A program made the position numbers and the translations under genes. A model generated the notes under the pieces. That model did no database searches. It had not been told where the DNA came from and saw only the letters and a list, made by a program, of their open reading frames with translations. This document shows, piece after piece, positions 2 through 36,806 of a stretch of 53,821 bases of DNA; position 1 is the stretch's first letter; every line of letters starts with the position of its first letter. This DNA comes from an uncultured Planctomycetia bacterium (GTDB lineage: Bacteria; Omnitrophota; Gorgyraeia; Duberdicusellales; 4484-171), in assembly GCA_964420965.1 (NCBI GenBank), contig CAYQUQ010000004.1:1252-55072 (forward strand), given 5' to 3'.

Positions 2-199
2 TATAGAGGTCATGAGCAGAATCGTAGTTCATGTTATTTTTTAAGACGTAAAGGCGTAGGCGTAAAGATTAACTTCGGCATAAAAAAAGAAGAGGATATT
101 TTAAAGGGGCATAGCTGGCTTACGCTTGACGGTGAGCCTTACCTTGAAACCGGACGTTTTTACCGGGATTTTAAGGTAATCCATTCCTGTCCTTCCTGA
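2..199 (+). CDS. 3' end of a transglutaminase-like cysteine-protease-fold protein (lasso-peptide B2 / Transglut_core3-like), 5'-truncated by the window edge
   Basis: Not in the ORF track because it is open at the window edge. Frame 2 reads YRGHEQNRSSCYFLRRKGVGVKINFGIKKEEDILKGHSWLTLDGEPYLETGRFYRDFKVIHSCPS, then TGA at 197-199. The pattern LRRxG-x-x-x-x-x-G ... (A/G)H(A/S)W-x3-DG matches my memory of the C-terminal half of PF13471/lasso B2 proteins. Only 65 aa are visible and the expected catalytic Cys lies outside the window. Confidence 0.4.
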   Translation, partial: YRGHEQNRSSCYFLRRKGVGVKINFGIKKEEDILKGHSWLTLDGEPYLETGRFYRDFKVIHSCPS

Positions 200-1425
200 T
201 TCCTTTTTAGCGCCGCCCGGCTGTCTTTATCCCGGGGATTGATCTTTAAGGCCATCCGGTAATATTTTTGGGCCGCTTTTAAGTTACCCCGGATTTTGTA
301 GAGCCCGGCCAGGTTATAGTGACTTTCCGGGAATTGAGGGTGGAGTTTACAGGCTTTCTGGTATTCTTCTTCGGCCTGTTTTAACCGGCCCTGGTGTTCA
401 TAGGCTATCCCCAGATTATTGCGGGCCAAGAGGTGGTCCGGATTGACCCGGATGGCTTTTTTAAGTGTTTTTTCGGCTTCTTTGAACTTATTTTGGTCGC
501 TATAAACCATACCCAGAACAGTTAAAGCATCGGCGTATTCCGGGTCGAGCCGGAGCGACTTTTTTAGATTGAAGACAGCAGCTTGGTAATTTCTTTGTTC
601 CTTATAGACTGCCCCGAGAACAAAGTAGGCATTTTTTAGTTTGCCATTTAATTTTATGGCTTTTTTTAAATATTGGATTGCTTTGTCATCTTCTTTTAAA
701 AAGCTAAAGTAGGTTATACCCACATTGAGATAGCTTAAAGGGTCGTCCGGGGAAGCTACCAGGTATTTAAGCTCGTCACGAAAGTACTTTTTCTGTTTTT
801 TGATGAAATATTTTTCTCCCTTCAGGAATTGAAAATGGTGTATTACGACATCGCAATCCTTAATCGTGGCTTTATTCCTTTTAGTAAAGCCGGGAGCATC
901 TTTGTGGGCGGAATACCTTTCTTCTTTATAGGTTGCTTTTTCTTTTTGAAAAAGCCTTAGGTAGCGGGTGGTGGAGTATCCGGCGCATCCGGAAAGTTTT
1001 TCTTCTTTAAGATATTTCCCGTTATTGGGGCGCCACTGGCGTAGGAGGTCGTAACTTTGGGTGTAGTCCCGCCGGGTGAGAATATAACCCCAGGCCTTTT
1101 TACTTTTGACCAGCTTTTTTAGTTTCGCCAGGTCACCCCTGGCTACAGTTTCATCAGCGTCCAGAACTAATATCCACTTCGAGCCGGCCTTTTTTAAATA
1201 GGTATTCCGCGCCCGGCCCAGGTTTCCGGCTGTCCTGCAGGGAAAGATTTTGGCCCCCAGCCTTCTGGCTATTTTGGTGGTGTTGTCAGACGAACCGGTG
1301 TCGACTACTATGATTTCGGATACTGCCGGTTGCACCGACCGGATAGCCCGGGCGATAAATCGCGCTTCATTTTTTACTATCATGCAGAGTGCGATCGAGT
1401 CTTGAGCAGAGTCTTTCATTGACAT
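160..1425 (-). CDS. Glycosyltransferase family 2 domain fused to C-terminal TPR repeats
   Basis: N-terminus: IALCMIVKNEARFIARAIRSV..IIVVDTGSSDNT..LVLDADE (GT-A fold with a DxD-like DAD). C-terminal ~190 aa holds several 34-aa TPR-like units (AYFVLGAVYKEQRNYQAAVFNLKKSLRLDPEY, GMVYSDQNKFKEAEKTLKKAIRVNPDH, GIAYEHQGRLKQAEEEYQKACKLHPQF, AGLYKIRGNLKAAQKYYRMALKINP). Confidence 0.85.
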   Translation of the reverse strand: MSMKDSAQDSIALCMIVKNEARFIARAIRSVQPAVSEIIVVDTGSSDNTTKIARRLGAKIFPCRTAGNLGRARNTYLKKAGSKWILVLDADETVARGDLAKLKKLVKSKKAWGYILTRRDYTQSYDLLRQWRPNNGKYLKEEKLSGCAGYSTTRYLRLFQKEKATYKEERYSAHKDAPGFTKRNKATIKDCDVVIHHFQFLKGEKYFIKKQKKYFRDELKYLVASPDDPLSYLNVGITYFSFLKEDDKAIQYLKKAIKLNGKLKNAYFVLGAVYKEQRNYQAAVFNLKKSLRLDPEYADALTVLGMVYSDQNKFKEAEKTLKKAIRVNPDHLLARNNLGIAYEHQGRLKQAEEEYQKACKLHPQFPESHYNLAGLYKIRGNLKAAQKYYRMALKINPRDKDSRAALKRNQEGQEWITLKSR

Positions 1426-1447
1426 ACTAGAGACTTATACCTATACT
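1419..1447 (+). promoter_or_regulatory. Sigma70-like promoter, TTGACA-17 nt-TATACT, upstream of the GT4 gene
   Basis: TTGACA at 1419-1424, 17-nt spacer, TATACT at 1442-1447, 41 nt before GTG 1489. The -35 hexamer overlaps the ATG (1423-1425, minus strand) of the divergent GT2-TPR gene. Confidence 0.45.
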
Positions 1448-1488
1448 TTTATATGGTTTATTCTATCATGTTTATGGCGGGGTAAAAA

Positions 1489-2691
1489 GTGAAGATTCAA
1501 TTGCAAAATATACTCTTTTCTCCCTGGGGCAGCGGTATCGGAAATTATTTATATTATGTTTCGAAAACGCTGCTTAAATTGAATCATGAGCCGAGTGTAC
1601 TTTGCGGCCGGCACCGGAAAAATTTAGCCGGGGATGAAGTGTACGAAGGGATCAAGATAGTCCGATACCCTGATTACGCACCGGCAAAGTTGCTTTATTC
1701 GGCCCGGCTTTCGTTTTTATCTGTATTTACCTACCAGAGGAAACTGACCGATTTTATCCGCCGGCGCTCAAGGGATGCCGATGCGATTTGGGCCCGGCAT
1801 CCTTATTGTGCTTATGCTTGCGCGAAAGCCTTTCCGGATAAGCCGCTTATTTATATTCAGGCCGGTGCCTGGCCGAAGGCTTTAAAGAGATTGAACTCAA
1901 TAGCTCCGGGGAGCTGGCGTAGAAAGATTTCTTTTAAGCTGCACAGCTTCCAGAATTATTATATCGAAAAAAAGGCAATTGCAATGAGCAATAAGGTTGT
2001 CGCGCTAAGTACGATTATGAAAAAGGAAATCAGTGAATTTTACCGTTTACCGCCGGATAAAATCATATCCATTCCGCCGGGAGTGGATTTGGAAAGATTT
2101 AAGGCCCGGGAGAAAGATAGTTCTGCCTTAGCCGAGCTGAGCATTCCCGAAGGTTCAAAAATTATTTTATCGGTCTGCCGGCTATCTCCGGAAAAAAATA
2201 TCGTCATGTTGCTGCGTGCTTTCGCCCGGATAGATACTTACGGTATTTACCTGGTTATCGTCGGTGAAGGCCAAGAGAAGGAGCATCTAAAGAGTCTTTC
2301 CCGGGAACTTAAGATAGGGGGGAAGGTAATATTTACCGGACACCGCCGAGATCCGGAAAAATTTTATAATATCGCCGACATATTTGTTCTACCTTCGGTT
2401 TATGAGGGGTTTGGCCATGTATATCTGGAGGCGATGGCTTCGGGGTTACCCTGTGTGGGGTTAAGATCCGATTACCCCAGAGTGGTGGTCGCGACCGAGG
2501 AGATTATCCGTGACGGTGAAACCGGCTATTTAGCAGATCCCGATCAAGTAGAGGATTTATCCGGGAAAATAAAAAGAATTATTTTTGATAATGAATTAAG
2601 GGTAAAGATGGGAGAAGCCGCCCGGAAAGCTTGTGAGCAAAAATACTCCTGGGAAGAGCATGTAAAAAAGATACTTAGATTAACCGGATGA
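1489..2691 (+). CDS. Glycosyltransferase family 4 (GT-B, retaining type)
   Basis: GTG start. C-terminal half has RRDPEKFYNIADIFVLPSVYEGFGHVYLEAMASGLPCVG ... E, the EX7E-type GT4 signature. Confidence 0.85.
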   Translation: MKIQLQNILFSPWGSGIGNYLYYVSKTLLKLNHEPSVLCGRHRKNLAGDEVYEGIKIVRYPDYAPAKLLYSARLSFLSVFTYQRKLTDFIRRRSRDADAIWARHPYCAYACAKAFPDKPLIYIQAGAWPKALKRLNSIAPGSWRRKISFKLHSFQNYYIEKKAIAMSNKVVALSTIMKKEISEFYRLPPDKIISIPPGVDLERFKAREKDSSALAELSIPEGSKIILSVCRLSPEKNIVMLLRAFARIDTYGIYLVIVGEGQEKEHLKSLSRELKIGGKVIFTGHRRDPEKFYNIADIFVLPSVYEGFGHVYLEAMASGLPCVGLRSDYPRVVVATEEIIRDGETGYLADPDQVEDLSGKIKRIIFDNELRVKMGEAARKACEQKYSWEEHVKKILRLTG

Positions 2692-2701
2692 GATTATCTT
2701 A

Positions 2702-2730
2702 TTGACATTTAGCGGATATATTTGTATACT
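2702..2730 (+). promoter_or_regulatory. Sigma70-like promoter, TTGACA-17 nt-TATACT, driving the small peptide ORF
   Basis: TTGACA 2702-2707, 17-nt spacer, TATACT 2725-2730. Followed by AAGGAGG at 2743-2749 and GTG at 2754. Confidence 0.55.
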
Positions 2731-2753
2731 TTATTTAGAAATAAGGAGGTTCA

Positions 2754-2864
2754 GTGACTACAGCCAAAAAGTATATTAAACCTCAGATAAAACGGCAGGG
2801 CAATTTGCGGCGTATAACCCAGCTTTGCCCGGTTGAAAGAGCTCCCCGCAAGAAAAGCCGTTAG
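2754..2864 (+). CDS. 36-aa candidate RiPP precursor with a lasso-type leader motif
   Basis: Hand translation: gtg act aca gcc aaa aag tat att aaa cct cag ata aaa cgg cag ggc aat ttg cgg cgt ata acc cag ctt tgc ccg gtt gaa aga gct ccc cgc aag aaa agc cgt tag = MTTAKKYIKPQIKRQGNLRRITQLCPVERAPRKKSR. It has its own promoter and SD. Y7, P10, I12, G16 and T22 fit the YxxPxLxxxGxxxxxTx spacing of lasso leaders. It sits directly upstream of a PqqD-like RRE gene. It is too short to appear in the ORF track. Confidence 0.55.
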   Translation: MTTAKKYIKPQIKRQGNLRRITQLCPVERAPRKKSR

Positions 2865-2938
2865 GGAAACTTTTAGTTTCTCCCAAGGATCGGCCTTTAA
2901 CTTCCCCTGATAAGAGTTTAAGATTCACCTTTAACTTA

Positions 2939-2967
2939 TTGACATATAATGAGCAGTGGTATACTAT
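2939..2967 (+). promoter_or_regulatory. Sigma70-like promoter upstream of the PqqD-like gene
   Basis: TTGACA 2939-2944. The -10 is either TATACT at 2960-2965 (15-nt spacer) or TACTAT at 2962-2967 (17-nt spacer). AGGAGG at 2976-2981 lies 8 nt before ATG 2990. Confidence 0.4.
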
Positions 2968-2989
2968 ATTTTGAAAGGAGGCTTAAGCT

Positions 2990-3265
2990 ATGCCGGCAGC
3001 ACAAAAATACACAGTGGACAAAGATACCGTGGTTCACCGGATTATTGACGGAGAGGCGGTGATCCTTAATTTGGAAGATGGTTTCTATTACAGCCTGAAC
3101 AGAACAGCTACTTTAATCTGGGAGGCGGTAAACAAAGACAGAAGTTTCGGCGAAATACTGGACTTTTTTAAAAAAGAATACCGGATTTCCGAGGGGCAGT
3201 TAAAAAAGGACATACTGGAATTATTTAAGGACTTGAGCGCCAAGGGATTAATTAAAGACAGGTAA
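2990..3265 (+). CDS. PqqD-family protein (stand-alone RiPP recognition element / peptide chaperone)
   Basis: 91 aa. VVHRIIDGEAVILNLEDGFYYSLNRTATLIWEAVNKDRSFGEILDFFKKEYRISEGQLKKDILELFKDLSAKGLI follows the PqqD pattern (dge.vll....g.yy.LN.ta..iW..l....t..ei...l...y.v......D...fl..L...gli). Confidence 0.8.
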   Translation: MPAAQKYTVDKDTVVHRIIDGEAVILNLEDGFYYSLNRTATLIWEAVNKDRSFGEILDFFKKEYRISEGQLKKDILELFKDLSAKGLIKDR

Positions 3266-3342
3266 ATCTGCGCCGGCAGCCTGCCATCGTCCATTTAGCC
3301 ACGGCCAAGATAAAACCAACTATTTATTTTGAGGCACAAAGT

Positions 3343-4251
3343 ATGTTTCCGGATTTTTTAGGCATCGGCGCGCCCCGCTGCGGCACAAGCTGGTTGTGGG
3401 AAAACCTGCGCTGGCATCCCGATATCTGGATGCCGGCCACTAAAGAAATTCACTATTTTGACCGCCTGGCCAAAGGGTGTTCCGGCAACGTTTTTCAGAA
3501 GCTTTTTGGGCGGCCTAAACATAGCCGGATGTGGCGGCGCTGGATCAGGAAAGAATGGGGTAAGCTCAGGTCGGATTTCGACCGGCAGCGGTTCCTCTGG
3601 GACCTTAAATATTTTTTTGGCGCCTACAATGACGCCTGGTATGCTTCTTTATTTGCTGCCGGTCGAGGCAAGGTAACCGGAGAAATAACGCCTTCCTACT
3701 CAATGCTCGGGCTTAAAGATATAAAACACATTCATGATATCATGCCCGAGATTAAGATTATTTTTTTGATGCGCAATCCGGTAGATATGGTCTGGTCCTT
3801 CATCAAGCTTACTTTTTGTAACCTGCTCGGTAACCCCGTAAGCGCGATTTCTCTGGAAGAGGCATTAAAGAGAGCGGGCCTTAGCGGGGTAGCTTTAATG
3901 TCGAATTATGCGCGAACTTTTAAAAATTGGCTTACTTTTTTTCCTGAACAGCAGTTTTTTATCGGTTTTTTTGAGGAAGTGAAAAACGACCCCGGGGATT
4001 TTCTGTTAAGAATATATAAGTTCCTCGGTGTCCGGGTATCCCGCGAATATTTTCCCGGCCATATCCGGCAGAAGGTTGCCTCCAGCCCGCAACGTGATAT
4101 TCCGCCCGAACTTAAAAAACATCTGTCCGCAAAATATTACCCCCGGATCAAAGAGTTAAGCCTGCTTTTCGGGTCTTACCCGGCTTCATGGCTTAAGGAG
4201 GCAGAAGCTATTTTAGATGAGCCCGGAGTACCCGTAGCCCAATATGGATAA
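3343..4251 (+). CDS. PAPS-dependent sulfotransferase family protein
   Basis: 5'-PSB-like loop GIGAPRCGTSWLWENL near the N-terminus and a 3'-PB-like FLMRNPVDMVWSFIK (RNPxD..xS). Size (302 aa) is typical. Confidence 0.8.
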   Translation: MFPDFLGIGAPRCGTSWLWENLRWHPDIWMPATKEIHYFDRLAKGCSGNVFQKLFGRPKHSRMWRRWIRKEWGKLRSDFDRQRFLWDLKYFFGAYNDAWYASLFAAGRGKVTGEITPSYSMLGLKDIKHIHDIMPEIKIIFLMRNPVDMVWSFIKLTFCNLLGNPVSAISLEEALKRAGLSGVALMSNYARTFKNWLTFFPEQQFFIGFFEEVKNDPGDFLLRIYKFLGVRVSREYFPGHIRQKVASSPQRDIPPELKKHLSAKYYPRIKELSLLFGSYPASWLKEAEAILDEPGVPVAQYG

Positions 4252-5317
4252 TAAGATTCTTCACAATCTGGAACTGCTCGGCCTTATTGCCGGAGAAAAC
4301 AGCGCCGGCATCGAACGCTGCCTGGGGATAAAACAAATAGATTTTAAACATTTTAAAGATTTTGTGGACATCCATCAGTTATCCGGAAATTTATACGTAA
4401 GTCTAGGCCACTCTTCCCTGAAAGGACTTTTTCCCGCCGAGCTGATCGAGCATTTTAAATTCCTCTACACTGAGCAGTGGCTTAAAAACGAGGTGTTGCT
4501 TAGAGAAATCGAAGATTTAGGCCGGGAGTTTGAAAGGAAAAGCCTGGAGGTTTTATTTTTAAAAGGACCTTTTTTTGTCCAGCGTTTTTACGGAGATATC
4601 GACCGCCGGGTGATCAGGGATATCGATATTTTAGTCAGAAAAAAGGATATCGATAAGGCCGATAGAATATTAAGCGCCCGGGGTTTCCGGAGGGATTCAG
4701 CCACGCTGTTTAATAAAAACTTAACCACCTACTTTACCCATCATTTTGAATACTGGAAGGAAGATTTACCCTTAGACCTTCACTGGGCTTTGACCAGCCA
4801 CTTTTCTTTTAATTTAAACTATCCGGAAATATGGGATAAAAAACAACCCTTTATGTTTAAGGGGAGGGTTTTTTACGTTTTAGGCGATGAGTACAAATTA
4901 GTTTTTAGAATTTTGAGCTTGTTTGCCGATATCCAGATCGGTAACCTCTCTTTAAAATCGATTCTGGATACTTACATGATGCTAAGCGCTTTCGGCCGAG
5001 ATGTAGACTGGGAGCAGTTTTTCACCCGGCGCCGGAAAGAGCGGTTGTTCCGGATAGCCTTGAATGTTTTAGATTTAGTCCTGGATATCCTCAATTGCCG
5101 CCGGGATTTCTTAGAGCTTTCCCGGTACCTTGAAGCATCCGGGAAATACATAAAGCACAAGAGCCGGCTCTCTAAATTTGAGCTTCTAAACCGTTCGCGA
5201 TCGGCCTTAAATAATAAGCTTTGGGCCTTTAGTTTATATCAAGGCCCGGTATTTGCATCCTTTTTGTGGTGGACCTTTTCACTCCCCTTTAGAGTAGCCA
5301 TCCATCGCAAGGGATAA
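4244..5317 (+). CDS. Uncharacterised nucleotidyltransferase family protein (PF14907 / NTP_transf_5-like)
   Basis: FLKGPFFVQRFYGDIDRRVIRDIDILVRKKDIDKADRILSARGFRR ... LDLHWAL matches the remembered lKG..l....Y.....R...DiDlLV......a...L...Gy ... lDlH pattern. The start overlaps the sulfotransferase stop by 8 nt. Confidence 0.65.
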   Translation: MDNKILHNLELLGLIAGENSAGIERCLGIKQIDFKHFKDFVDIHQLSGNLYVSLGHSSLKGLFPAELIEHFKFLYTEQWLKNEVLLREIEDLGREFERKSLEVLFLKGPFFVQRFYGDIDRRVIRDIDILVRKKDIDKADRILSARGFRRDSATLFNKNLTTYFTHHFEYWKEDLPLDLHWALTSHFSFNLNYPEIWDKKQPFMFKGRVFYVLGDEYKLVFRILSLFADIQIGNLSLKSILDTYMMLSAFGRDVDWEQFFTRRRKERLFRIALNVLDLVLDILNCRRDFLELSRYLEASGKYIKHKSRLSKFELLNRSRSALNNKLWAFSLYQGPVFASFLWWTFSLPFRVAIHRKG

Positions 5318-5333
5318 TCAGGAAAAACAAGCC

Positions 5334-6311
5334 ATGCCCTGTCTTTCTGTAGTCATCCCGGCTTATAATAGTCAGCAGACTTTAGAAAAATGCCTTAAAG
5401 CCATACGGGAATCTACCTTTAAAGACTATGAGCTTATTGTTGTTGACGGCAAGAGTACCGATAGTACCCGTTTGGTGGCTAAAGAATATGCCGACCGGGT
5501 TATCGCCGTCGGGGCTAATTTTGGCCGCAGCCACAATCGTAATCAAGGCGTTGCCGCCGCCAGCGGAAGAATAGTAGTTAATATTGATGCCGATATAGTT
5601 GTAGAGCCGGATACGCTGCAAAAGATAGCGAATTATTTTTCGGCATACCCGCAAATCAGCGCTTTAAACGGAATTTTAGCCAGGGAGCACCCGCATTTAG
5701 ATTTTTTCAGCCAGTACAAGAATCTTTATATGCATTACCGGTTTTACCGCCTTCCGGAAAGAGTCAATTTCCTCTACGGCTCCTTGCATGCCTTAAGGAG
5801 GGAAGATGTCCAGCCCTATAACGCCAGGATTAAAATAGCCGACGATACGGCTTTAGGCCAGAGCCTGGTGGCCGGGGGGAAAGAAATAGCTTTGGTCAAA
5901 GGTTTGGAGGTAATCCATTTAAAGAAATACAATTTTTTCTCTTTAGTACAGAATGATTTCCAAATTCCTTTTGACTGGGCGAAAATATTCTTAAGCTTTA
6001 AGGGGTTTAAGCAGTTAGGGAGGAATAAAACCGGATTTGCCCACGCTTCCAAGGCCCAATTGATCAGCGTAAGTCTGGCCCCTTTAATCACCGGCCTGCT
6101 TGTTTTGGCTTTAGCCGGCAGTTTCCATTTTTATTTCGGATCGTCTTTTCTTTTGATCTGGTTTTTGTTAAATTACCCTTTTTTTCGTTTTTTGGGCCGG
6201 GAGAAAGGCCTGGCCTTTGCGGCTTTTGCCGTTTTAGTCACTTTCCTGGATAATCTGATTATGGCTTTGGGGATTATTTGCGGAGCTTTAGCCTTTTTAA
6301 TGGGAAAATGA
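5334..6311 (+). CDS. Glycosyltransferase family 2 with C-terminal transmembrane segments
   Basis: LSVVIPAYNSQQTLEKCLKAI..LIVVDGKSTDST..NIDADIVV (GT2 with DxD). The C-terminal ~90 aa is hydrophobic (LISVSLAPLITGLLVLALAG, LLIWFLLNYPFF, AFAAFAVLVTFLDNLIMALGIICGALAFL). Confidence 0.85.
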   Translation: MPCLSVVIPAYNSQQTLEKCLKAIRESTFKDYELIVVDGKSTDSTRLVAKEYADRVIAVGANFGRSHNRNQGVAAASGRIVVNIDADIVVEPDTLQKIANYFSAYPQISALNGILAREHPHLDFFSQYKNLYMHYRFYRLPERVNFLYGSLHALRREDVQPYNARIKIADDTALGQSLVAGGKEIALVKGLEVIHLKKYNFFSLVQNDFQIPFDWAKIFLSFKGFKQLGRNKTGFAHASKAQLISVSLAPLITGLLVLALAGSFHFYFGSSFLLIWFLLNYPFFRFLGREKGLAFAAFAVLVTFLDNLIMALGIICGALAFLMGK

Positions 6312-7693
6312 AAGCCGAGTCTAAAACTTTGATCATTGGAGCAGGCCCCGCGGGGATGGGCTGTGCTTACGCTTTAGCCGAAGCCGGGGTAATACCGTTA
6401 GTAGCCGATAAGGAAAGGGTTGGCGGCGGCCTTTGCCGCACACTTGATTTTAAAGATTTTCGCTTCGACATCGGCGGGCACCGCTTTTTTTCTGCTTCCC
6501 CGGAGGTTAACCGGCTCTGGAAGGATATTCTGGGTGCGGATTTACTCCGGGTCCGAAGGTTATCGCGCATATATTATCGCGATAAATATTTCGATTATCC
6601 GCTTTCTTTCGCCAATACTTTTAAGAACTTAGGCTGGGCGGAAAGTTTATGCTGCGCTACCAACTATTTACAATCCCGGTTTTTACGCCCCGCGGATGAT
6701 AATACCTTCGCCGGATGGACCGTCAATCGTTTCGGTTCCAGATTGTTTAATATTTTTTTTAAGGATTTTACGGAGAAAATCTGGGGCCTGCCTTGCGAGG
6801 ATATTTCTTCGGAGTGGGCCCGGCAGAGGATGCAGGGGCTTTCGCTGAGAGTAGCGGTTCAGAAAGCTTTATCCGGTAATAAAAATTCCGGCCCCAAGAC
6901 ATTATGCGCTGAGTTTTTTTACCCCCGTTTCGGCCCGGGCCAGTTTTACCGCCGTCTGGAAGCTGCTATCGGCAGAAGGGGCGGCAAATTCTCATTTTCG
7001 AAAAAGGTAACTTCCGTCTGGCACGAGGGCAATAAAATCGTAAGTATTAATTTATACGATGGCAACGAAAGTAAAGAAGAGAATTTTGAAGTAAACTATC
7101 TTTTTTCCAGTATGCCTTTATCGTTTCTGGTGAAAAGCTTTAAGCCCTTGCCGCCGGCAGAGGTTGTATCCGCGGCCGAAAATTTGCGGTTCCGCAGTTT
7201 CTTGACCGTAAACGCTATTTTCGATAAAGAGCGTATTTTTCCGGATCAGTGGATATACGTTAATTCTCCCCGGGTGCGGCTGGGCCGGATTCAAAATTAT
7301 AAGAATTGGAGCTTAGGTATGAGCGCTGATTTTAAAAAAACTTCTCTGGGGCTCGAATATTTCTGCAGCCAAGGTGATTCGGTCTGGGCCATGAACGATA
7401 AGGAGTTGATTGCTTACGCGTTAGGCGAACTGGAGAGTTTAGGTATCGTTTCCGGTAAATACTTCCGGGATGGATTTGTCTCCCGCCACGCCGATACTTA
7501 CCCGGTTTATTTACGCGGGTATCAAAAAAATGTTGAAGTTATCCGAAAATACTTAGCTAAGTTTTCCAACCTTCAGACTATCGGCCGGGCCGGCCTTTTC
7601 CGCTACGATAATTCCGACCACGCCCTCCTAACCGGCATACATGCCGCCAGAAATTTTCTCGGCCAAAGCAGCAGTGATATCTGGAAGATTTAA
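6308..7693 (+). CDS. FAD/NAD(P)-binding oxidoreductase (amine-oxidase / protoporphyrinogen-oxidase-like fold)
   Basis: Dinucleotide-binding motif LIIGAGPAGMGCAYALAEAG...VADKERVGG, then DIGGHRFF. I prefer the ATG at 6308 (ATGA overlap with the upstream TGA 6309-6311) to the track start at 6278. Confidence 0.7.
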   Translation: MKAESKTLIIGAGPAGMGCAYALAEAGVIPLVADKERVGGGLCRTLDFKDFRFDIGGHRFFSASPEVNRLWKDILGADLLRVRRLSRIYYRDKYFDYPLSFANTFKNLGWAESLCCATNYLQSRFLRPADDNTFAGWTVNRFGSRLFNIFFKDFTEKIWGLPCEDISSEWARQRMQGLSLRVAVQKALSGNKNSGPKTLCAEFFYPRFGPGQFYRRLEAAIGRRGGKFSFSKKVTSVWHEGNKIVSINLYDGNESKEENFEVNYLFSSMPLSFLVKSFKPLPPAEVVSAAENLRFRSFLTVNAIFDKERIFPDQWIYVNSPRVRLGRIQNYKNWSLGMSADFKKTSLGLEYFCSQGDSVWAMNDKELIAYALGELESLGIVSGKYFRDGFVSRHADTYPVYLRGYQKNVEVIRKYLAKFSNLQTIGRAGLFRYDNSDHALLTGIHAARNFLGQSSSDIWKI

Positions 7694-7696
7694 GGA

Positions 7697-9346
7697 TTAA
7701 CGCTTTTTAAGTTTCATGGCCCAGATGCCCGGCGGCCCGGAATAGAACTTTTCCACGTTAATATCGGCCCGCTTTTCAAATTGCGCTTTGATTTTTTTCA
7801 ATTTCCGGCGCCAGCGCCTTTCGGAAATTATATACCAGGCATAGTCGTATCCGGGTTCGACGCCGGTTTTAGCCAGCCAGTCGAAAGAAATATCTTCATT
7901 TTTTACCTTTTTTATCCAGGGGATAGCCGAGAACCGGCGTTCATGCTCGAAAACCAGGAAAGAACGCCGGTTCATGACCAGGGATACTTTATCGCCGGCC
8001 GTTGTTTCTTTCTGGATTCTTTTCAGCAGTCCGCGCATTGATTCCATATTTTGTCCGTAAAGCAGTATTCTTCCCGTACGGTATATATTGGGCAGGAGTA
8101 AAAAAACCATCAGCAGGATCAGGAATTTATTCTCCTTTCTTTTATCTCTTTTGGTTACGATGCAAGTGTAGAAGTGCTTTACGACGATAAAAAAAGAGGT
8201 GAATAAAACCGGGCTTATAAAGAGGTTGTGGCGTAGCGGCCCGACCGGATATATTCCCAGCGTTGATAAGACTACACAGGCAGTTATCGAATAGAGCATC
8301 ACCCCTAAGACCACGCTGTTTAAGGTATCTTTGCGGCGGATAAACACTCCCAAGGCAAGGAATGAATAGATCAGAACCCCCCCCGCGATTATTAAAAGCG
8401 GAGAACCGAGGCTGAACTGGGGAATTATTAAATATATTCTTCCGGCATTAAACAGCTGCCAGGATATCATCGAAGGCAGGAAACTCATAATTTCCAAAGA
8501 GTAATATTTTAAGCTATGGTGGAAGGTGTACTTTAGATAGAAGAGATAATTGGTAAAGCTGTACTTGGTAAATATATCCTTAAACTCAAGGCCGCGGCTA
8601 AAAATATGAATGTTAAATATAGAAACAACATATAAGGCCGCAATAATCAGGGGGGTTAGCAATAAGGCTGTTTTAAGAATCTTTACCGATGCGGAGTCAA
8701 CCTTGCTTTTTATGGTATGGATGACTAATACGGCAACGGTGAAAGGAAAGAAAATGCCGTAGCCGTATCCGGAAGACAGCCCGAGTAAAAAACTTAAAAG
8801 CATCCAGAGGTAGTATTTATCTCTTTTGCCTTTGGCCTTTATGATTTTAAGTAGCAACAAAAGAGTTAGCGCCGAGCAGAATATTTCCAGTGAGTAGGAT
8901 CGTAATTCGATCGAATAGTAGAACCAGGTAGCATTTAAAGCGCAAAAGAGGACAAAAGCAATCCGCCATTTTTTTGAAAACCCGCACACTTTGGCCATAA
9001 AATACATGAGGTATATGGCTCCTAAGTTAAACAGCAAAGGAATCAACCTTAACCACAATGTGCTGTTGGATATTTTTGACCAGTAATGTATTATTAAGGT
9101 AAAGAGAGGAGACCCCAGGAGCCATCGGGAAGTATTGTAAAGCAGGGATTTTAGCTGCGTATCTTGATGTATGAAGTCAAGCGGGCCGTTGTAAGACGGC
9201 GTTATCCCTTTGGCAATCCAGAATTGGCGGGCTTCGTCGATCCAGAAACCGTAGGTATTAAGGGCCACGATTCGAAATCCCAGCCAGAGCAGGATAAGCA
9301 GCAAGATAAGTTTTTTAGCTTTGTCATTATATAAAAAAGCTTTCAT
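7697..9346 (-). CDS. Polytopic membrane glycosyltransferase, GT-C fold (ArnT / PMT_2-like)
   Basis: 549 aa with more than 10 hydrophobic helices. First-loop motif FWIDEARQFWIAKG resembles the DE-containing loop of GT39/GT83 enzymes. Soluble C-terminal ~110 aa. Confidence 0.65.
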   Translation of the reverse strand: MKAFLYNDKAKKLILLLILLWLGFRIVALNTYGFWIDEARQFWIAKGITPSYNGPLDFIHQDTQLKSLLYNTSRWLLGSPLFTLIIHYWSKISNSTLWLRLIPLLFNLGAIYLMYFMAKVCGFSKKWRIAFVLFCALNATWFYYSIELRSYSLEIFCSALTLLLLLKIIKAKGKRDKYYLWMLLSFLLGLSSGYGYGIFFPFTVAVLVIHTIKSKVDSASVKILKTALLLTPLIIAALYVVSIFNIHIFSRGLEFKDIFTKYSFTNYLFYLKYTFHHSLKYYSLEIMSFLPSMISWQLFNAGRIYLIIPQFSLGSPLLIIAGGVLIYSFLALGVFIRRKDTLNSVVLGVMLYSITACVVLSTLGIYPVGPLRHNLFISPVLFTSFFIVVKHFYTCIVTKRDKRKENKFLILLMVFLLLPNIYRTGRILLYGQNMESMRGLLKRIQKETTAGDKVSLVMNRRSFLVFEHERRFSAIPWIKKVKNEDISFDWLAKTGVEPGYDYAWYIISERRWRRKLKKIKAQFEKRADINVEKFYSGPPGIWAMKLKKR

Positions 9347-9445: not shown

Positions 9446-10729
9446 ATGAGAAAAAAAAACATTTTACTGCTGATCGTTTTTGCGGGGGTACTGCTTCGGT
9501 CGGGGGTGGTATTTTTTTCATCCGTACCTTATTCCCGGGTAATTCCCGATTTAAAGAAGTATGATCATATTGCTCAGAATATAGCTTTTAAAGGAATTTA
9601 CTCTCAGGATTCGCCGCAAACCCTTAAGCCTGAACCCACCGCGGTATACCCCCCGGTATATCCGGGCCTCCTGGCGGCAATATACCGTTTCTGCGGCTAT
9701 AAACCGATTTTAGCCGTTTATCTGAACATTATTTTTTACATAACTGCCTGTATGGTTATTTTTAAATTAGGCCGTTTGCTTTTTGATGAGACAACCGGCT
9801 TAATCGGTGTTCTTTTTTTTACCCTTGAGCCCGTGGTACTTATTTATTCCATTATACCCATTCCGGATATATGTATTGGTCTGCTGTTGCCTTTAAGCCT
9901 TTATTTTTTAATAAAATTCCTGAACCAGAATCCCCGCGGTAAGGTTTATTACCGCTACCTTATCTTAGCCAACATCACCCTGGCCTTAGGCATATTGACC
10001 AAGCCGGTAGTATTTTATTTCCCCTTCCTGATCGTTTTATTTATTCTTTCCTATTGGAAAAAAAATATGCGTAAAGCCGTTTTAGCTTCCGGCCTTACCC
10101 TGATTCTGACGGGGCTGGCTATTTCCCCCTGGCTGGTGAGAAATTATAGGATTTGGAATAAGGTTCGCTTTGTCACCACCGGCGGGTTTATTGCTCCCCG
10201 GAAGTCGGCTATTCTTGAAAAGGTTAACCGCACGCAGGGGCAGCTTCGCGATCATCCTTCAGCCTTGATGAATCGAACTGTTGCTTATGTTTTCGGTACG
10301 GGCACAATAACCTTTTACCGGATGTTTGACCCCGGCGATAATCTACAGGAATACTACCAGCGCCACAAAGAGCAGTTTTTAAAAAAGGCGGGTTCGAAAA
10401 GACATAACATTTTTAAGGGGCCGCTTATAAGTGATTACCTGAGAATTTTTAATTTTTCCCGTAAGTTCGCTGTGCTTGAATTCTTATTTTTGGGTATTTT
10501 ATTAATTACATACCTGTTTGCATTACTGGGGGTGTTTTTTGCCTTTAAATTTAGAAAAAGGCGGGAATTACTGGTAGCTGCTTTGGGGATTATTTATTTT
10601 TCGGCCACTATAATCGTGGCCATAAGCGCTAACAGCCGGTACCGCCTTCCGGCGATACCTTTTTACGCTATCCTTGCCGGTTACGGGGTGAAAAACCTTG
10701 TTTTTCCCCGGAATAAAAACCGGGTTTAA
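9446..10729 (+). CDS. Polytopic membrane glycosyltransferase, GT-C fold (ArnT / PMT_2-like), second copy
   Basis: 427 aa with ~10 hydrophobic helices. The N-terminal loop PDLKKYDHIAQNIAFKG resembles the pDa..Y...A.n...g.g loop of PMT_2-type enzymes. Confidence 0.6.
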   Translation: MRKKNILLLIVFAGVLLRSGVVFFSSVPYSRVIPDLKKYDHIAQNIAFKGIYSQDSPQTLKPEPTAVYPPVYPGLLAAIYRFCGYKPILAVYLNIIFYITACMVIFKLGRLLFDETTGLIGVLFFTLEPVVLIYSIIPIPDICIGLLLPLSLYFLIKFLNQNPRGKVYYRYLILANITLALGILTKPVVFYFPFLIVLFILSYWKKNMRKAVLASGLTLILTGLAISPWLVRNYRIWNKVRFVTTGGFIAPRKSAILEKVNRTQGQLRDHPSALMNRTVAYVFGTGTITFYRMFDPGDNLQEYYQRHKEQFLKKAGSKRHNIFKGPLISDYLRIFNFSRKFAVLEFLFLGILLITYLFALLGVFFAFKFRKRRELLVAALGIIYFSATIIVAISANSRYRLPAIPFYAILAGYGVKNLVFPRNKNRV

Positions 10730-10731
10730 AA

Positions 10732-11877
10732 ATGTTTTTTAAGGCTAAAGCTATTGCCGTCAATACCGAAGAATTGATTTTGATTTCGGCCCGGCATAAA
10801 TCGGATAGCCGGCTGTCGGAGCGGGCCGTCAATTTGATCAAAGCCGGCGTAGACTGGGCTTACTTCAGCAATTTTATACTCGAAAATAAAATTGTCGGCT
10901 CGGCTTATAACTTGCTGGAGTTTTGCGGCCGGTCGGCCAATATCCCCCCAGCCGTGCTTAGCCGTTTAAGGTCAGCTAATCTCTTCCTGGCTTACAAGAT
11001 AACTCTGCATCACCAAAAGCTCAAAGAGATTTTAAAATTATTTTATGGGCACGATATCGCTGTTGTGCCGCTAAAGGGGACAATTCTATCCCGGCGGCTT
11101 TACGGAGAAGTTAGCGCCCGCGGTTTAAGTGTTGATTTTGATTTCTTTATCGCGGCAAAAGACCGGGGTCGGGTGCAGGCTTTGCTGGAGAAGGAAGGGT
11201 TTTCGCTTTCCTCTCACCCCCGGGAGGAATTATTGGGATCGGCGATTTTTAGCCGGTCCAATTCAGAAATAATTGATTTACACTGGAGTATGTTGACGCC
11301 GTTTTATTGCCCCTCTGAAAGGCTCGCCGGGTTTTTAAAATCCCGGCGGCTGGTGGAGGAGGAAGGGGTGAAGTATTATGAGTTTAAGGAGGAAGAGCTA
11401 TTACTTTATCTTTCCGCACACCTGGCCAGCAGCAGCTGTTTTGGGCGCTTACGGGATATTGGCGATATAAAGGCATTTTTAGATAAATACCGCGGCCGGC
11501 TTAATTGGCCCAGCTTAATGGTTAAGGCCCGGGAGTGGAGGCTATCCAGTTCCCTATATGCCGCTCTTAAGCTTTCCGGGAAGCTTTTTTCTTCTGATCT
11601 GCCGTCCGGAGTCCCGGGTAAATTAAGACCCGGCTCCTTAAAGCTGATTTTGATCAGAGCAGTTACCGCTAAAAAGATTATTTTGGGGAGAGAGTTAAAG
11701 AGGCAAAAAGTTATCGTCCGGCTTTTCAGGTTCGTATTGTTTCGGCTGATCGAATCCCGTTCGCTCCGGGATTATATAAAGACTTTATTCCCGCCTAAAC
11801 AGCTTATAAAAAGCCGTTCTTATTTGTCCCGGATTTTTAAGGCCCTCACCAGATTTTTCCGGGTCTTATCGGCCTGA
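10732..11877 (+). CDS. Second PF14907 / NTP_transf_5-like nucleotidyltransferase family protein
   Basis: PLKGTILSRRLYGEVSARGLSVDFDFFIAAKDRGRVQALLEKEGFSL ... IDLHWSM parallels the 4244-5317 product motif for motif. Confidence 0.6.
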   Translation: MFFKAKAIAVNTEELILISARHKSDSRLSERAVNLIKAGVDWAYFSNFILENKIVGSAYNLLEFCGRSANIPPAVLSRLRSANLFLAYKITLHHQKLKEILKLFYGHDIAVVPLKGTILSRRLYGEVSARGLSVDFDFFIAAKDRGRVQALLEKEGFSLSSHPREELLGSAIFSRSNSEIIDLHWSMLTPFYCPSERLAGFLKSRRLVEEEGVKYYEFKEEELLLYLSAHLASSSCFGRLRDIGDIKAFLDKYRGRLNWPSLMVKAREWRLSSSLYAALKLSGKLFSSDLPSGVPGKLRPGSLKLILIRAVTAKKIILGRELKRQKVIVRLFRFVLFRLIESRSLRDYIKTLFPPKQLIKSRSYLSRIFKALTRFFRVLSA

Positions 11878-12104: not shown

Positions 12105-12133
12105 TTGACAATATTAGACATCTGTACTATACT
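12105..12133 (+). promoter_or_regulatory. Sigma70-like promoter, TTGACA-17 nt-TATACT, at the head of the regulatory/export operon
   Basis: TTGACA 12105-12110, 17-nt spacer, TATACT 12128-12133, 84 nt upstream of GTG 12217. It sits in a 340-nt AT-rich intergenic region. Confidence 0.5.
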
Positions 12134-12216: not shown

Positions 12217-12411
12217 GTGAAAGATAAGATCTACCGCACAAAAGAAGTGCTCCGAATAGTGGGGATTTCCCGGGCCACCCTTTACAATTGGTTTCGGGAT
12301 AAGAAGGTCAGGGATGTATCCCGGGACCGCAATGATTTTCGTATTTTTACCGACGCGGATATTGCCAGGATTTTAGCTTATAAGAATTTAATCAGACATT
12401 CACCCCGTTAA
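12217..12411 (+). CDS. Small MerR/excisionase-type helix-turn-helix protein, copy 1
   Basis: 64 aa. YRTKEVLRIVGISRATLYNWFRDKKV is a typical HTH_17/MerR-like N-terminal HTH. GTG start. Confidence 0.7.
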   Translation: MKDKIYRTKEVLRIVGISRATLYNWFRDKKVRDVSRDRNDFRIFTDADIARILAYKNLIRHSPR

Positions 12412-12598
12412 AAAGCTGATGAAGTCAGATAAGATCTACCGCACAAAAGAAGTGCTCCGAATAGTGGGGATTTCCCGGGCCACCCTTTACAATTGGTTTC
12501 GGGATAAGAAGGTCAGGGATGTATCCCGGGACCGCAATGATTTTCGTATTTTTACCGACGCGGATATTGCCAGGATTTTAGCTTACAAGAATTTAATC
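12223..12598. repeat. Tandem direct duplication: 171-bp unit, 205-bp period, 1 mismatch
   Basis: 12223-12393 and 12428-12598 are identical except t12381 versus c12586 (synonymous, Tyr codon). Each unit covers almost the whole small HTH gene. Confidence 0.9.
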
Positions 12599-12613
12599 CG
12601 GGAGCCGCGATGA
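12419..12613 (+). CDS. Small MerR/excisionase-type helix-turn-helix protein, copy 2
   Basis: Same 57-aa core as copy 1. It differs only at the first 3-4 and last 3-4 residues. Its stop overlaps the PilZ gene start (ATGA). Confidence 0.7.
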   Translation: MKSDKIYRTKEVLRIVGISRATLYNWFRDKKVRDVSRDRNDFRIFTDADIARILAYKNLIREPR

Positions 12614-12978
12614 CCGCCAGAAAGAAAGGAAAAGAAAAACGGAAGCACAAAAGGATCAAATACTATTGTCTTATAAAGTACCGTCTGTCTTCCCGGGAGA
12701 GGGTTTACAGCAAGACAGTTACCTCTTTAAGAAATATCGGCGGCGGCGGAATCATGTTTAAAACCGATGAGACCCTGCCGGTGGGGGTTCTGCTCGACGT
12801 CGAGATCAACATGCCCGTTTTTAAAAAGGTGATCAAGGCTGTGGCTAAAGTAAAATGGACCGAAAGGGTATGGAGCAGCCAGAGGCACGAGGTGGGTATT
12901 GAGTTTTTGAATATAGACGAAACAGAAAGAAAGGAAATCGTTGAATTCGCCGATAATGCCGAGAAAAACGAGGCGTAA
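12610..12978 (+). CDS. PilZ-domain protein (putative c-di-GMP receptor)
   Basis: RKHKR (RxxxR) at the N-terminus, then LRNIGGGGIMF ((D/N)-h-(S/G)-x-x-G) about 25 residues later. The ~120-aa size is typical for a single-domain PilZ protein. Confidence 0.7.
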   Translation: MTARKKGKEKRKHKRIKYYCLIKYRLSSRERVYSKTVTSLRNIGGGGIMFKTDETLPVGVLLDVEINMPVFKKVIKAVAKVKWTERVWSSQRHEVGIEFLNIDETERKEIVEFADNAEKNEA

Positions 12979-31685: not shown

Positions 31686-31692
31686 ACTTAAG

Positions 31693-33096: not shown

Positions 33097-33126
33097 TTTT
33101 TTGGATACCGTCCCCAAAGCAGCGAT

Positions 33127-36029: not shown

Positions 36030-36038
36030 CCGTAGGTT

Positions 36039-36782: not shown

Positions 36783-36806
36783 AATTAATTTTGAATATTA
36801 CCGAAG

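Follow-up and report, generated by a model that had tools for sequence, protein, structure and literature searches.

Recognition by B1 proteins and cleavage by B2 proteins are usually viewed as parts of a single product class, the lasso peptides. Neighbourhoods combining a kinase, a PqqD protein and a nucleotidyltransferase are captured by the models TIGR04352 and TIGR04355 (Haft) and by TIGR04249. Lasso leaders are defined by a motif of Tyr(-17), Pro(-14), Leu(-12) and Thr(-2), and lasso rings close with an Asp or Glu at core positions 7-9 (PMC10368454). Lasso precursors can be phosphorylated ahead of cleavage by a homologue of HPr kinase, which is assisted by B1, and the phosphate can receive a sugar from a nucleotidyltransferase (PMC8498205; PMC10368454). 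In the case of pseudomycoidin, a nucleotidyltransferase of a description like that of the one treated below puts a hexose onto phospho-Ser (PMC8498205).

In this study, we analysed a stretch of 53,821 nucleotides, referred to as the window, which makes up a 54-kb glycan and export locus. We show that an unannotated open reading frame (ORF) of 36 codons is, as far as sequence can tell, a real and conserved gene for a small, very basic peptide; its expression is inferred. We consider it probable, without regarding the matter as settled, that this ORF encodes the precursor or substrate of a RiPP-like pathway which draws on lasso recognition and cleavage machinery, lacks a cyclase and leads to a linear tailored product. 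The features of the window that matter here are the following.

35..199, + strand: 3' end of a gene for a 660-aa fusion of a B12-type radical SAM with a lasso-B2 protease; the remainder lies upstream of the window
160..1425, - strand: divergent GT2-TPR glycosyltransferase (NCBIfam), with homologues near family peptides in loci L038 and L071
1489..2691, + strand: GT4 glycosyltransferase, directly upstream of the small ORF and with a TTGACA-17-TATACT promoter of its own at 1419
2702..2730, + strand: sigma-70-like promoter TTGACA-17-TATACT, 5' of the small ORF; promoter function inferred only
2743..2749, + strand: Shine-Dalgarno site AAGGAGG, read directly, 4 nt upstream of the GTG start
2754..2864, + strand: putative precursor-peptide gene of 36 codons, from GTG at 2754 to a stop codon ending at 2864
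2939..2967, + strand: second promoter-like site, 5' of the PqqD gene, from the promoter scan
2990..3265, + strand: PqqD-family RRE of lasso-B1 type, 91 aa (Pfam PqqD, E 2e-16)
3343..4251, + strand: sulfotransferase in the operon of PqqD (Pfam Sulfotransfer_1/_3), with either the peptide or a glycan as its possible substrate
4244..5317, + strand: NTP_transf_5 (PF14907) nucleotidyltransferase (Pfam, E 1e-43), overlapping the sulfotransferase gene by 8 nt
5334..6311, + strand: GT2 glycosyltransferase with C-terminal membrane segments (Pfam)
6278..7693, + strand: FAD-dependent oxidoreductase of the amine-oxidase family (Pfam; NCBIfam PRK07208), a conserved partner of the GT2

Direct reading of the promoter places TTGACA at 2702-2707 and TATACT at 2725-2730, with a spacer of 17 nt. 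The site scores 11/12 matches in the promoter scan; the window contains three exact copies of TTGACA-17-TATACT, this one included. The relaxed pattern TTGACA-16..18-TAnnnT turns up five times in the window, where 1.0 would be expected, and all but one of these occurrences precede operon starts; at a loose threshold, the scan overall revealed no enrichment over shuffles. The second promoter and its 5'UTR nearly duplicate 2694-2746, as seen from the direct repeats 2694-2711/2931-2948 (89%) and 2724-2746/2959-2981 (83%). Translation of 2754-2864 gives (M)TTAKKYIKPQIKRQGNLRRITQLCPVERAPRKKSR. Residues 1-23 form the leader, in which Y7, P10, I12, G16 and T22 stand in exact register with Y-x2-P-x-L-x3-G-x5-T-x. 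The tail L24-R36, LCPVERAPRKKSR, has 13 aa with three Arg, two Lys, one Cys (Cys25), one Ser (Ser35, the penultimate residue) and one Glu, its sole acidic residue, at core position 5. The initial annotation had placed the promoter, AAGGAGG and the GTG-started ORF at these same coordinates, had recognised the lasso-type YxxPxLxxxGxxxxxTx spacing, had given this tail composition and had described the flanking genes as GT4, PqqD, sulfotransferase and NTP_transf_5. Our reading agrees with it throughout, for the flanking genes by Pfam.

With Leu, Ile, Val, Met or Phe allowed at the Leu position, a six-frame search of the 246 kb comprising window and loci returned the leader motif only once, namely in ORF 2754-2864. 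Given the six-frame amino-acid composition, chance would yield 0.18 matches in a window and 0.001 in the gap of 298 nt between the GT4 and PqqD genes. The strict motif was also counted in 504 kb of sequence surrounding PqqD homologues, where it is found 12 times in the forward and not once in the reversed sequences. Eight copies of the locus (L001-L008) have a contig that spans this gap, and in none of them does a public gene call cover the ORF. All copies of the locus in eight samples are 100% identical and hence carry no population signal. Rfam has no match for the region, and a hairpin after the stop codon is about as stable as shuffled sequence (z -0.3), so that neither an attenuator nor a terminator is claimed.

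Concerning recognition, the best NCBIfam model for the adjacent PqqD is lasso_PqqD_Bac, whose cutoff of 80 bits is not reached by the score of 48 bits. Its best sequence match in the PDB is TbiB1 (E 1e-7), and its closest solved relatives are lasso B1 proteins. The AF2 model (pLDDT 90) reaches TM scores of 0.85-0.92 to TbiB1 and TfuB1 and lies within an rmsd of 1.0 A of leader-bound TbiB1. By homology and by its predicted fold, the protein is a lasso-B1-type recognition protein, while its binding to the leader remains an inference. In sister loci, GT2 enzymes are fused to PqqD, and an S24/S26 peptidase to NTP_transf_5; such fusions link these types of enzyme with the recognition of peptides.

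A B2-like cleavage enzyme and a kinase are found on the same contig at the left edge of the window or beyond it, with most of their sequence outside, and were thus out of sight for the initial annotation. The complete radical SAM-B2 fusion gene is seen in L001 (1228-3210); window positions 2-199 translate to ...YFLRRKGVGVKINFGIKKEEDILKGHSWLTLDGEPY... up to the stop codon. The C-terminal domain of the fusion matches lasso_biosyn_B2 (NCBIfam) with 34.3 bits and so passes the cutoff of 33; the Pfam matches of the fusion are Transglut_core3 and Radical_SAM, and the catalytic Cys and His of the B2 domain are conserved. The upstream HPr-kinase-like protein matches HprK_rel_A best (54.5 bits, cutoff 200), HprK_rel_B and ScmC more weakly, and Hpr_kinase_C weakly. 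The divergent GT2-TPR gene and the GT4 gene stand between these two genes and the small ORF. No asparagine-synthetase-like cyclase (Asn_synthase) is present among the window ORFs of at least 110 aa or in the 3 kb upstream; the scanned stretch begins some 3 kb upstream and ends 51 kb downstream, so that a cyclase may still be encoded in another part of the genome. Cyclase-like MSGIAG... ORFs do occur beside classical cores, which start with Gly and contain Asp, in the loci of more distant PqqD homologues.

Relatives of PqqD were collected by an exhaustive HMMER search, a word-index search having returned the query alone. Relatives of the peptide adjoin PqqD homologues in Omnitrophota, Bdellovibrionales, Dehalococcoidales and other MAGs. 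The initial annotation had asked whether a small ORF with the same leader and a short basic core is conserved in homologous loci. Small ORFs of this family do recur next to PqqD: eleven loci carry family peptides. Members are found in L071, L038, L039, L040 (five tandem copies), L041, L042, L043, L047, L056 and L078, and nearly all are preceded by Shine-Dalgarno sites. They share a Lys-rich N-terminus, followed by Y-x-x-P-x-[LIV]-x-[KR]-...-[LIV] and a short, variable tail of 1-17 residues past the leader, in relatives as short as 1-5. The closest relative is the L071 peptide from Bdellovibrionales, MPTKKKKEKKKEYKKPQVKKQGNLRLITQMS (phmmer E 1.5e-5; the copy is written …EYKKPQVKKQGNLRLITQMS), which ends two residues past the leader. 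Over 19 shared codons, window and L071 differ by 10 synonymous and 6 non-synonymous changes, 3 codons being identical. The short tails of L071 and L038 were also considered as recent nonsense mutations, an explanation that we rejected; the downstream frames are stop-rich in five independent loci. A Ser, Thr or Cys at +17/+18 from the Tyr is usual and occurs in seven independent lineages; the L071 peptide terminates in Ser and the L038 peptide in Thr, and in the window Cys25 occupies this position. The pattern was noticed post hoc and in few lineages. Thr(-2) is found in all three loci with B2 (window, L043 and L056) and is missing from the Omnitrophota peptides of loci without B2; the L071 peptide has Thr(-2), yet no B2 lies within the 10.6 kb of this locus. 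No family peptide was detected in about 30 loci anchored on NTP_transf_5 or the sulfotransferase and lacking PqqD. The NTP_transf_5-anchored loci, mostly without PqqD and peptides, serve as negative controls and not as synteny, and a close orthologue of the whole block of small ORF, PqqD and sulfotransferase was not found. The peptide family is uncharacterised, and our literature search, extended to the HprK-related and SynChlorMet models, came upon no description of such systems.

How the peptide might be processed can be outlined by inference. PqqD would contact Tyr7, Pro10 and Ile12 of the leader and hand the peptide to partner enzymes. The B2 domain would cleave after Thr22-Gln23 and set the tail free, and tailoring would affect Cys25, the nucleophile that the family conserves just past the leader, or Ser35, or both. 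The candidate reactions are phosphorylation, glycosylation, sulfation and radical SAM chemistry, all of them inferred and not shown. The likeliest route would begin with phosphorylation of the HprK type, after which NTP_transf_5 would mediate the transfer of a sugar, by analogy with pseudomycoidin; reactions of the radical SAM, glycosyl or sulfate kind on the tail might accompany or replace these steps. The presumed product is a linear, cationic, modified peptide which is functionally linked to the surrounding glycan locus. Against a tailored peptide stand the lack of expression and peptide data and of any population signal, the separation of the B2 and kinase genes from the ORF, the missing whole-block orthologue and the glycan-type neighbours. 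As to a Ser-kinase step, for which the acceptor would be a Ser at the C-terminus or close to the beginning of the core, the Cys at the Ser/Thr position of the family is not normally the target of such a kinase, and Ser35 is the penultimate residue.

The neighbours call for caution in particular. The closest relatives of the nucleotidyltransferase, in L036 (58% identity) and L037 (55%), are adjoined by a kinase-like gene, with no PqqD, sulfotransferase or peptide between the two. Its family also includes fusions to an S24/S26 peptidase (L040) and to Sulfotransfer_2 (P0147). Orthologues of the GT2 adjoin the nucleotidyltransferase and the FAD oxidoreductase in L017, L036, L037 and L041; those of the FAD oxidoreductase are found in L017, L041 and L042. 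The initial annotation had proposed the downstream enzymes as tailoring enzymes of the peptide. Not all of them are peptide-specific: polysaccharide loci that lack PqqD hold the nearest homologues of the sulfotransferase. Since the search anchored on this enzyme had led to these very loci, we do not count it as evidence that the peptide is sulfated. The sulfotransferase family and the module of GT2, FAD oxidoreductase and PMT_2 look glycan-directed.

Among the alternatives, the one which survives best is that no free product is made and that the peptide is a mere leader, acting either as an RRE-docking scaffold by which PqqD-bearing glycan enzymes are assembled or activated, or as a primer whose Ser, Thr or Cys past the leader accepts a growing and perhaps sulfated glycan. 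Tails of only 1-5 residues and the Ser/Thr/Cys at +17/+18 in seven independent lineages would suit such a role. Several discrete PqqDs and the GT2-PqqD fusions are dispersed among glycosyltransferases, the nearest relatives of the sulfotransferase are of glycan type, and in the 54-kb glycan and export locus no initiating phosphoglycosyltransferase was seen among the scanned ORFs. The B2-type leader peptidase domain and the Thr(-2) in B2 loci argue for cleavage here, however, and the nucleophile pattern is post hoc and confined to few lineages. We know of no peptide-primed bacterial polysaccharide. On balance we hold this explanation to be unlikely. The broader proposal that the pair of lasso leader and RRE has been re-used outside cyclisation, with peptides of a leader plus one nucleophile as glycan primers, carriers or docking adaptors, is put forward as speculation that is rather doubtful at present.

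An origin of a small molecule or cofactor from the peptide, following the logic of PQQ or mycofactocin with one or two tail residues modified and then excised, appears improbable to us. Sister loci do combine PqqD with radical SAM/SPASM enzymes (119-142 bits against the model for MftC), contain a GT2-PqqD with MftF as its best match (148 bits) and also hold an FAD oxidoreductase and peptidases, and the tails are very short and variable. Yet all MftC and MftF scores remain under the family cutoffs, a conserved C-terminal dipeptide like the Val-Tyr of mycofactocin is missing, and the radical SAM of the window is of B12 type and fused to B2 instead of being a SPASM maturase; moreover, the tail in the window comprises 13 residues and is highly basic.

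A true lasso precursor with an unusual ring and a cyclase encoded elsewhere in the genome would account for the canonical leader, for the presence of B1 and B2 domains and for the kinase and the nucleotidyltransferase, which certain lasso clusters typically carry as accessory genes. Rings, however, need an Asp or Glu at one of positions 7-9 (PMC10368454), and the tail has neither there, its only acidic residue being at position 5; the closest relative stops two residues past the leader; and between about 3 kb upstream and 51 kb downstream no cyclase came to light. Because tails in the family end 1-17 residues past the leader, no ring formation is possible, and with such tiny tails and no ring-forming enzyme the product is not taken to be a lasso; we give the contrary only a very slight chance. 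This bears out the non-lasso core claimed in the initial annotation. Equally hard to credit is a chance ORF with a fortuitous motif, or a non-coding regulatory region, in a gap that merely holds promoters, for although gene callers skipped 2754-2864, the start codon is GTG, expression and peptide data are lacking and the loose promoter scan does not exceed shuffles, such an accident is opposed by the motif expectation of only 0.001 in the gap, the strong Shine-Dalgarno site, the synonymous-rich substitutions in homologues from other phyla, the occurrence of the family only with PqqD in the loci examined and the absence of any Rfam match.

Here, several uncultured phyla retain this recognition module, together with an unmistakable lasso-type leader, in the absence of the cyclase that defines the class and with hardly any core. 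The family offers a testable precursor for orphan lasso-type RREs, RRE-glycosyltransferase fusions and the PF14907/HprK-like neighbourhoods flagged by genome mining, a kind of gene missed by current gene callers and lasso-centred miners. If the peptide is indeed glycosylated, sulfated or a glycan primer, RiPP logic would be tied to cell-surface polysaccharide synthesis in Omnitrophota-like nanobacteria. Should it act as primer or adaptor, Omnitrophota and other uncultured bacteria would possess a peptide-primed or peptide-scaffolded polysaccharide pathway, whose glycan might be sulfated in this locus.

Compared with known systems, the resemblance to glycocins (SunS) is limited to a Cys in the tail and nearby GT2/GT2-TPR enzymes. 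Matches to the SunS family are weak (21-45 bits) and far from the cutoff of 350 bits, and the window peptide has neither the helix-loop-helix disulfide scaffold nor a double-glycine leader. With mycofactocin and PQQ, the locus shares a small peptide and a PqqD-type RRE, and sister loci add radical SAM, GT2 and oxidoreductase genes. Equivalogs of MftC, MftF and MftB are missing, though, the matches being below cutoff and confined to sister loci; the Val-Tyr terminus is absent and the leader is of lasso type. As regards the HprK-related kinases A and B (TIGR04352, TIGR04355) and ScmC (TIGR04249), the upstream kinase matches HprK_rel_A best, but with 54.5 bits it is not a member of TIGR04352 by the curated threshold of 200. 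The split B1/B2 lasso systems (paeninodin, pseudomycoidin, Bradymonas Bsf) come considerably closer in their parts. They share the leader motif YxxPxL...G...T(-2), a discrete PqqD-type RRE with a predicted fold nearly superimposable on TbiB1/TfuB1 and a B2 transglutaminase-like Cys/His protease domain; the phosphorylated/phosphoglycosylated lasso type also shares the HPr-kinase-related gene and the PF14907 nucleotidyltransferase, and some Firmicute lasso clusters a sulfotransferase (PMC8498205, PMC10368454). The window locus departs from all of these in lacking an asparagine-synthetase-like cyclase and an Asp or Glu at tail positions 7-9, in the fusion of B2 to a B12 radical SAM, in the polysaccharide setting of its genes and in a kinase and a PqqD that fall under the curated family cutoffs. 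The uncharacterised candidates of RRE-Finder (PMC7470986) include fusions of GT2 with PqqD, like those of the sister loci, and also discrete lasso-like RREs that have no lasso machinery around them. While a precursor family and its chemistry are absent from that work, the present analysis identifies for such RREs a precursor family with a lasso leader.

The space between the GT4 and PqqD genes holds a small ORF with its own promoter-like site and Shine-Dalgarno sequence, read from the sequence as follows:

2702-2730, forward strand: promoter-like site, TTGACA (2702-2707), 17-nt spacer and TATACT (2725-2730)
2743-2749, forward strand: Shine-Dalgarno sequence AAGGAGG
2754-2864, forward strand: small ORF, from its GTG start (2754) to the end of its stop codon (2864)

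The initial annotation had placed each of these elements exactly. The translated peptide, (M)TTAKKYIKPQIKRQGNLRRITQLCPVERAPRKKSR, is 36 residues long and includes 12 Lys or Arg and only one acidic residue. Lasso precursors carry YxxPxL at positions -17 to -12 and usually Thr at -2 (PMC10368454). Tyr7, Pro10, Ile12, Gly16 and Thr22 match Y-x2-P-x-L-x3-G-x5-T-x and are in register, as had been claimed. With LIVMF accepted at the Leu position, a six-frame scan of 246 kb (window and comparison loci) gave a single match, the small ORF itself; by chance, six-frame composition would predict 0.18 matches per window and 0.001 for the 298-nt gap. No gene is called for the small ORF in any of the eight locus copies spanning the gap (L001-L008), and the copies from eight samples are all identical, without sequence variation.

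TTGACA-N16-18-TAnnnT occurs at five sites in the window (1.0 expected), four of which precede operon starts (1419, 2702, 2939, 12105). The putative promoter and 5'UTR in front of the small ORF are repeated directly, at 83-89% identity, in front of the PqqD gene (2694-2746 and 2931-2981, 235-237 nt apart), and the ATTGACA...TATACTTTAT design is also present at 1419 and 12105. Rfam gave no match, and a hairpin 3' of the stop codon does not exceed shuffled sequence in stability.

Homologous loci were collected by an exhaustive HMMER search with the PqqD (79 hits below 1e-10, best 54% identity), and then by scanning genomes with the best-matching of these; the nearest PqqDs (42-51% identity) are found in Candidatus Omnitrophota MAGs. 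The placing of the window in Omnitrophota is an inference whose sole grounds are the nearest homologues of its PqqD, GT2 and FAD oxidoreductase. Small ORFs near the PqqD homologues encode a Lys-rich N-terminus, the pattern Y-x-K-P-x-[LIV]-x-[KR]-x3-[LIF]-[KR]-x-[IV] and a short tail, and nearly every one has a Shine-Dalgarno site in front. The family peptides are, by locus:

L071 (Bdellovibrionales): MPTKKKKEKKKEYKKPQVKKQGNLRLITQMS
L038: ...KKEYQKPQLKRFKGLRKIVAT
L039: ...KKPYQKPTLAKFKQFKQIIATGAP
L040 (Omnitrophota MAG VGKH01000007), 10515-11500, forward strand: five tandem copies
L041: ...KKEYEKPVLSKYHQLKKVVACPD
L042: immediately 3' of PqqD
L043, L047, L056: tails contain Cys
L078: called 49-aa gene overlapping the end of a PqqD gene, ...EKYVPPQLIKFDKLEKLIVSGE

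The window peptide matches that of L071 with a phmmer E of 1.5e-5. Of the 19 codons shared, 3 agree exactly, with 10 synonymous and 6 non-synonymous (mostly conservative) differences; this is selection on the protein rather than on DNA or RNA. In 504 kb surrounding PqqD homologues, forward sequence contains the strict lasso motif 12 times and reversed sequence not once. About 30 loci that are anchored on NTP_transf_5 (PF14907) or sulfotransferase genes and lack PqqD gave no family member with either the leader HMM or a motif pattern scan. The homologous loci bear out the proposed leader peptide, as family ORFs with a like leader and a short tail adjoin PqqD homologues. We show that the small ORF is a peptide gene, conserved and associated with PqqD, whose product has a lasso-type leader.

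Two of the five tandem copies in L040 have weak or missing start codons; the array is flanked by a radical SAM/SPASM gene on one side and an HprK-like gene on the other, and the locus also holds a GT2-PqqD fusion and an S24/S26-NTP_transf_5 fusion. Four discrete PqqD genes lie within about 28 kb in L038/L039 (contig JAUYCX010000037) and two in L078, in both cases among GT2/GT4 genes.

A close orthologue of the whole small ORF-PqqD-sulfotransferase block was not found. Sulfotransferase homologues (43-48% identity) lie in polysaccharide loci without PqqD, and NTP_transf_5 homologues mostly have no PqqD nearby. In the two closest NTP_transf_5 relatives a kinase-like gene adjoins the nucleotidyltransferase and GT2 genes, lying immediately upstream in L036 and in divergent orientation in L037. 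In L036 (243-3327; the closest relative, 58% identity) an HprK-like gene is directly followed by these two genes. Compared with L036, the block of rSAM-B2, GT2-TPR, GT4, small ORF, PqqD and sulfotransferase seems either to have been inserted in the window's genome or to have been lost from L036.

Among NCBIfam models, the PqqD scores best with lasso_PqqD_Bac (48 bits, under the cutoff of 80), and the solved structures closest to it in sequence are those of the lasso B1 (PqqD-type recognition) proteins TbiB1 (E 1e-7) and TfuB1. Its AlphaFold2 model (pLDDT 90) superimposes on leader-bound TbiB1 with a TM of 0.85-0.92 (rmsd 1.0 A) and on TfuB1 with 0.84-0.89; PqqD from the PQQ pathway is a far poorer fit (TM 0.5-0.7). 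The B2 and kinase genes lie for the greater part outside the window, on the 133-kb public contig L001, which is 100% identical to the window over 35-9265. To the left of the window it carries an HPr-kinase-like gene (L001 275-1225) together with a 660-aa fusion of a B12-type radical SAM domain with a C-terminal domain of B2 type (leader protease), whose last 54 codons are window 35-199. This domain clears NCBIfam lasso_biosyn_B2 (34.3 bits, cutoff 33), matches Pfam Transglut_core3 and keeps the catalytic Cys and His. Window positions 1 to about 34 do not match L001, which is identical thereafter; the window start is probably a contig edge cutting the rSAM-B2 gene. B1, B2 domain, kinase-like gene and NTP_transf_5 are all in the locus. 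With B1 and B2 found, the lasso elements of leader recognition and cleavage are all present and the cyclase alone is missing.

Downstream of the small ORF the window encodes:

2990-3265: PqqD
3343-4251: sulfotransferase
4244-5317: NTP_transf_5 nucleotidyltransferase, 8-nt overlap with the sulfotransferase gene
5334-6311: GT2
6278-7693: FAD oxidoreductase
10732-11877: second NTP_transf_5
also downstream: PMT_2-like membrane glycosyltransferases

Beyond these genes, the 53.8-kb window is a locus for glycan synthesis and export in which radical SAM genes are numerous, and the sulfotransferase, GT2 and FAD oxidoreductase may act on the glycan instead of the peptide. Two tandem, near-identical 64-aa ORFs of MerR/HTH_17 type (12217-12411 and 12419-12613; MK(S)DKIYRTKEVLRIVGISRATLYNWFRDKK...) follow a promoter-like TTGACA-17-TATACT at 12105-12133 and precede a PilZ-domain gene (12610-12978) and export genes of the Wzz/tyrosine-kinase and Wza-like types; the pair could be regulators of the glycan locus. 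Six radical SAM genes lie in 29570-39890 (two B12-binding, one SPASM, three radical SAM-domain, two of the latter also with Fer4_12). A phosphodiesterase/sulfatase-like gene is interspersed among them, as are genes for a GT2 and an FkbM methyltransferase and a 350-aa ORF without assignment; the run yielded no small ORF resembling a leader.

The claim that the core cannot form a lasso ring is also upheld. Lasso rings are closed through Asp or Glu at positions 7-9 (PMC10368454); the only acidic residue of the 13-residue window tail (L24-R36) is at position 5. Family tails are only 1-5 residues long in five independent loci, where the downstream frames are full of stops, ruling out recent truncation. 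None of the scanned ORFs of the 53.8-kb window encodes an asparagine-synthetase-like protein, the lasso cyclase. More distant PqqD homologues in the same scan stand beside classical precursors (e.g. ...YGNVEAITK|GNANGDFLD... in L054), with cyclase-like ORFs starting MSGIAG in these loci, so that the method picks up canonical clusters where present. No cyclase is present in the locus as scanned, and the family tails are too short for a ring.

Several patterns bear on the mechanism. Thr(-2) is found in all three loci with a B2 domain (window, L043, L056) and in L071. Omnitrophota peptides have Val, Ile or Gln at -2, and their loci encode S24/S26-type peptidases instead of B2, one being a fusion with NTP_transf_5; phosphorylated lasso peptides with Ile or Val at -2 are on record (PMC10368454). 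Ser, Thr or Cys lies 17-18 residues past Tyr (core position 1 or 2) in seven independent lineages, as the last residue in L071 and L038 and as Cys25 in the window. This putatively conserved nucleophile, recognised post hoc in few lineages' sequences, is a lead only. GT2 enzymes with fused PqqD domains occur in Omnitrophota loci; RRE-Finder lists an RRE-fused GT architecture among uncharacterised entries (PMC7470986). In comparison protein P0147 NTP_transf_5 is fused to a Sulfotransfer_2 domain, and in L013-L015 and L080 it often has a Sulfotransfer_2-like gene after it; a functional link between the NTP_transf_5 family and sulfation is suggested. A second cyclase-less arrangement (L056 7977-11904, L043, L055) combines PqqD, B2, radical SAM/SPASM, HprK-like and NTP_transf_5 genes with a Cys-containing peptide with Thr(-2), and may yield a thioether-type product on a lasso-type leader.

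In lasso systems an HPr-kinase homologue, stimulated by B1, phosphorylates the linear precursor before cleavage (PMC8498205, PMC10368454), and in pseudomycoidin a nucleotidyltransferase puts hexoses on the phosphate (PMC8498205). By inference, and without binding data, PqqD would bind Tyr7, Pro10 and Ile12 of the leader, and the B2 domain would cleave after Thr22-Gln23. Tailoring could take place at Cys25 and/or Ser35, on the tail or the still-leadered peptide, for which mass-spectrometry data are lacking; candidates would be phosphorylation with NTP_transf_5-dependent sugar transfer, radical SAM chemistry, glycosylation and sulfation. The predicted product, for which there are no expression data, would be a linear cationic modified peptide tied to the glycan locus.

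Alternatively, the peptide might be a non-cleaved adaptor or glycan primer, which we consider unlikely. None of the scanned ORFs of the 54-kb glycan/export locus encodes an initiating phosphoglycosyltransferase (Bac_transf or WecA type), and a peptide-primed or peptide-scaffolded glycan, the more radical reading, is not excluded. That it is the precursor of a mycofactocin- or PQQ-like small molecule seems quite improbable. A true lasso precursor with a remote cyclase would account for the leader and is poorly supported; since cyclase and ring-competent core, two defining features, both fail, the peptide should not be classed as a lasso. A chance ORF is likewise poorly supported, the leader-motif match being well beyond chance.

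Neither the precursor family nor its product was found described in the literature searched. The window components resemble the orphan RREs of RRE-Finder and the curated 'HprK-related kinase' models, but fall under the family cutoffs; in these comparisons only the B2 domain does not score below. Even though it differs from split-B lasso biosynthesis in having neither a cyclase nor a ring-competent core, the linear peptide system we favour is like the recognition and cleavage half of that pathway together with its kinase/nucleotidyltransferase accessory set.
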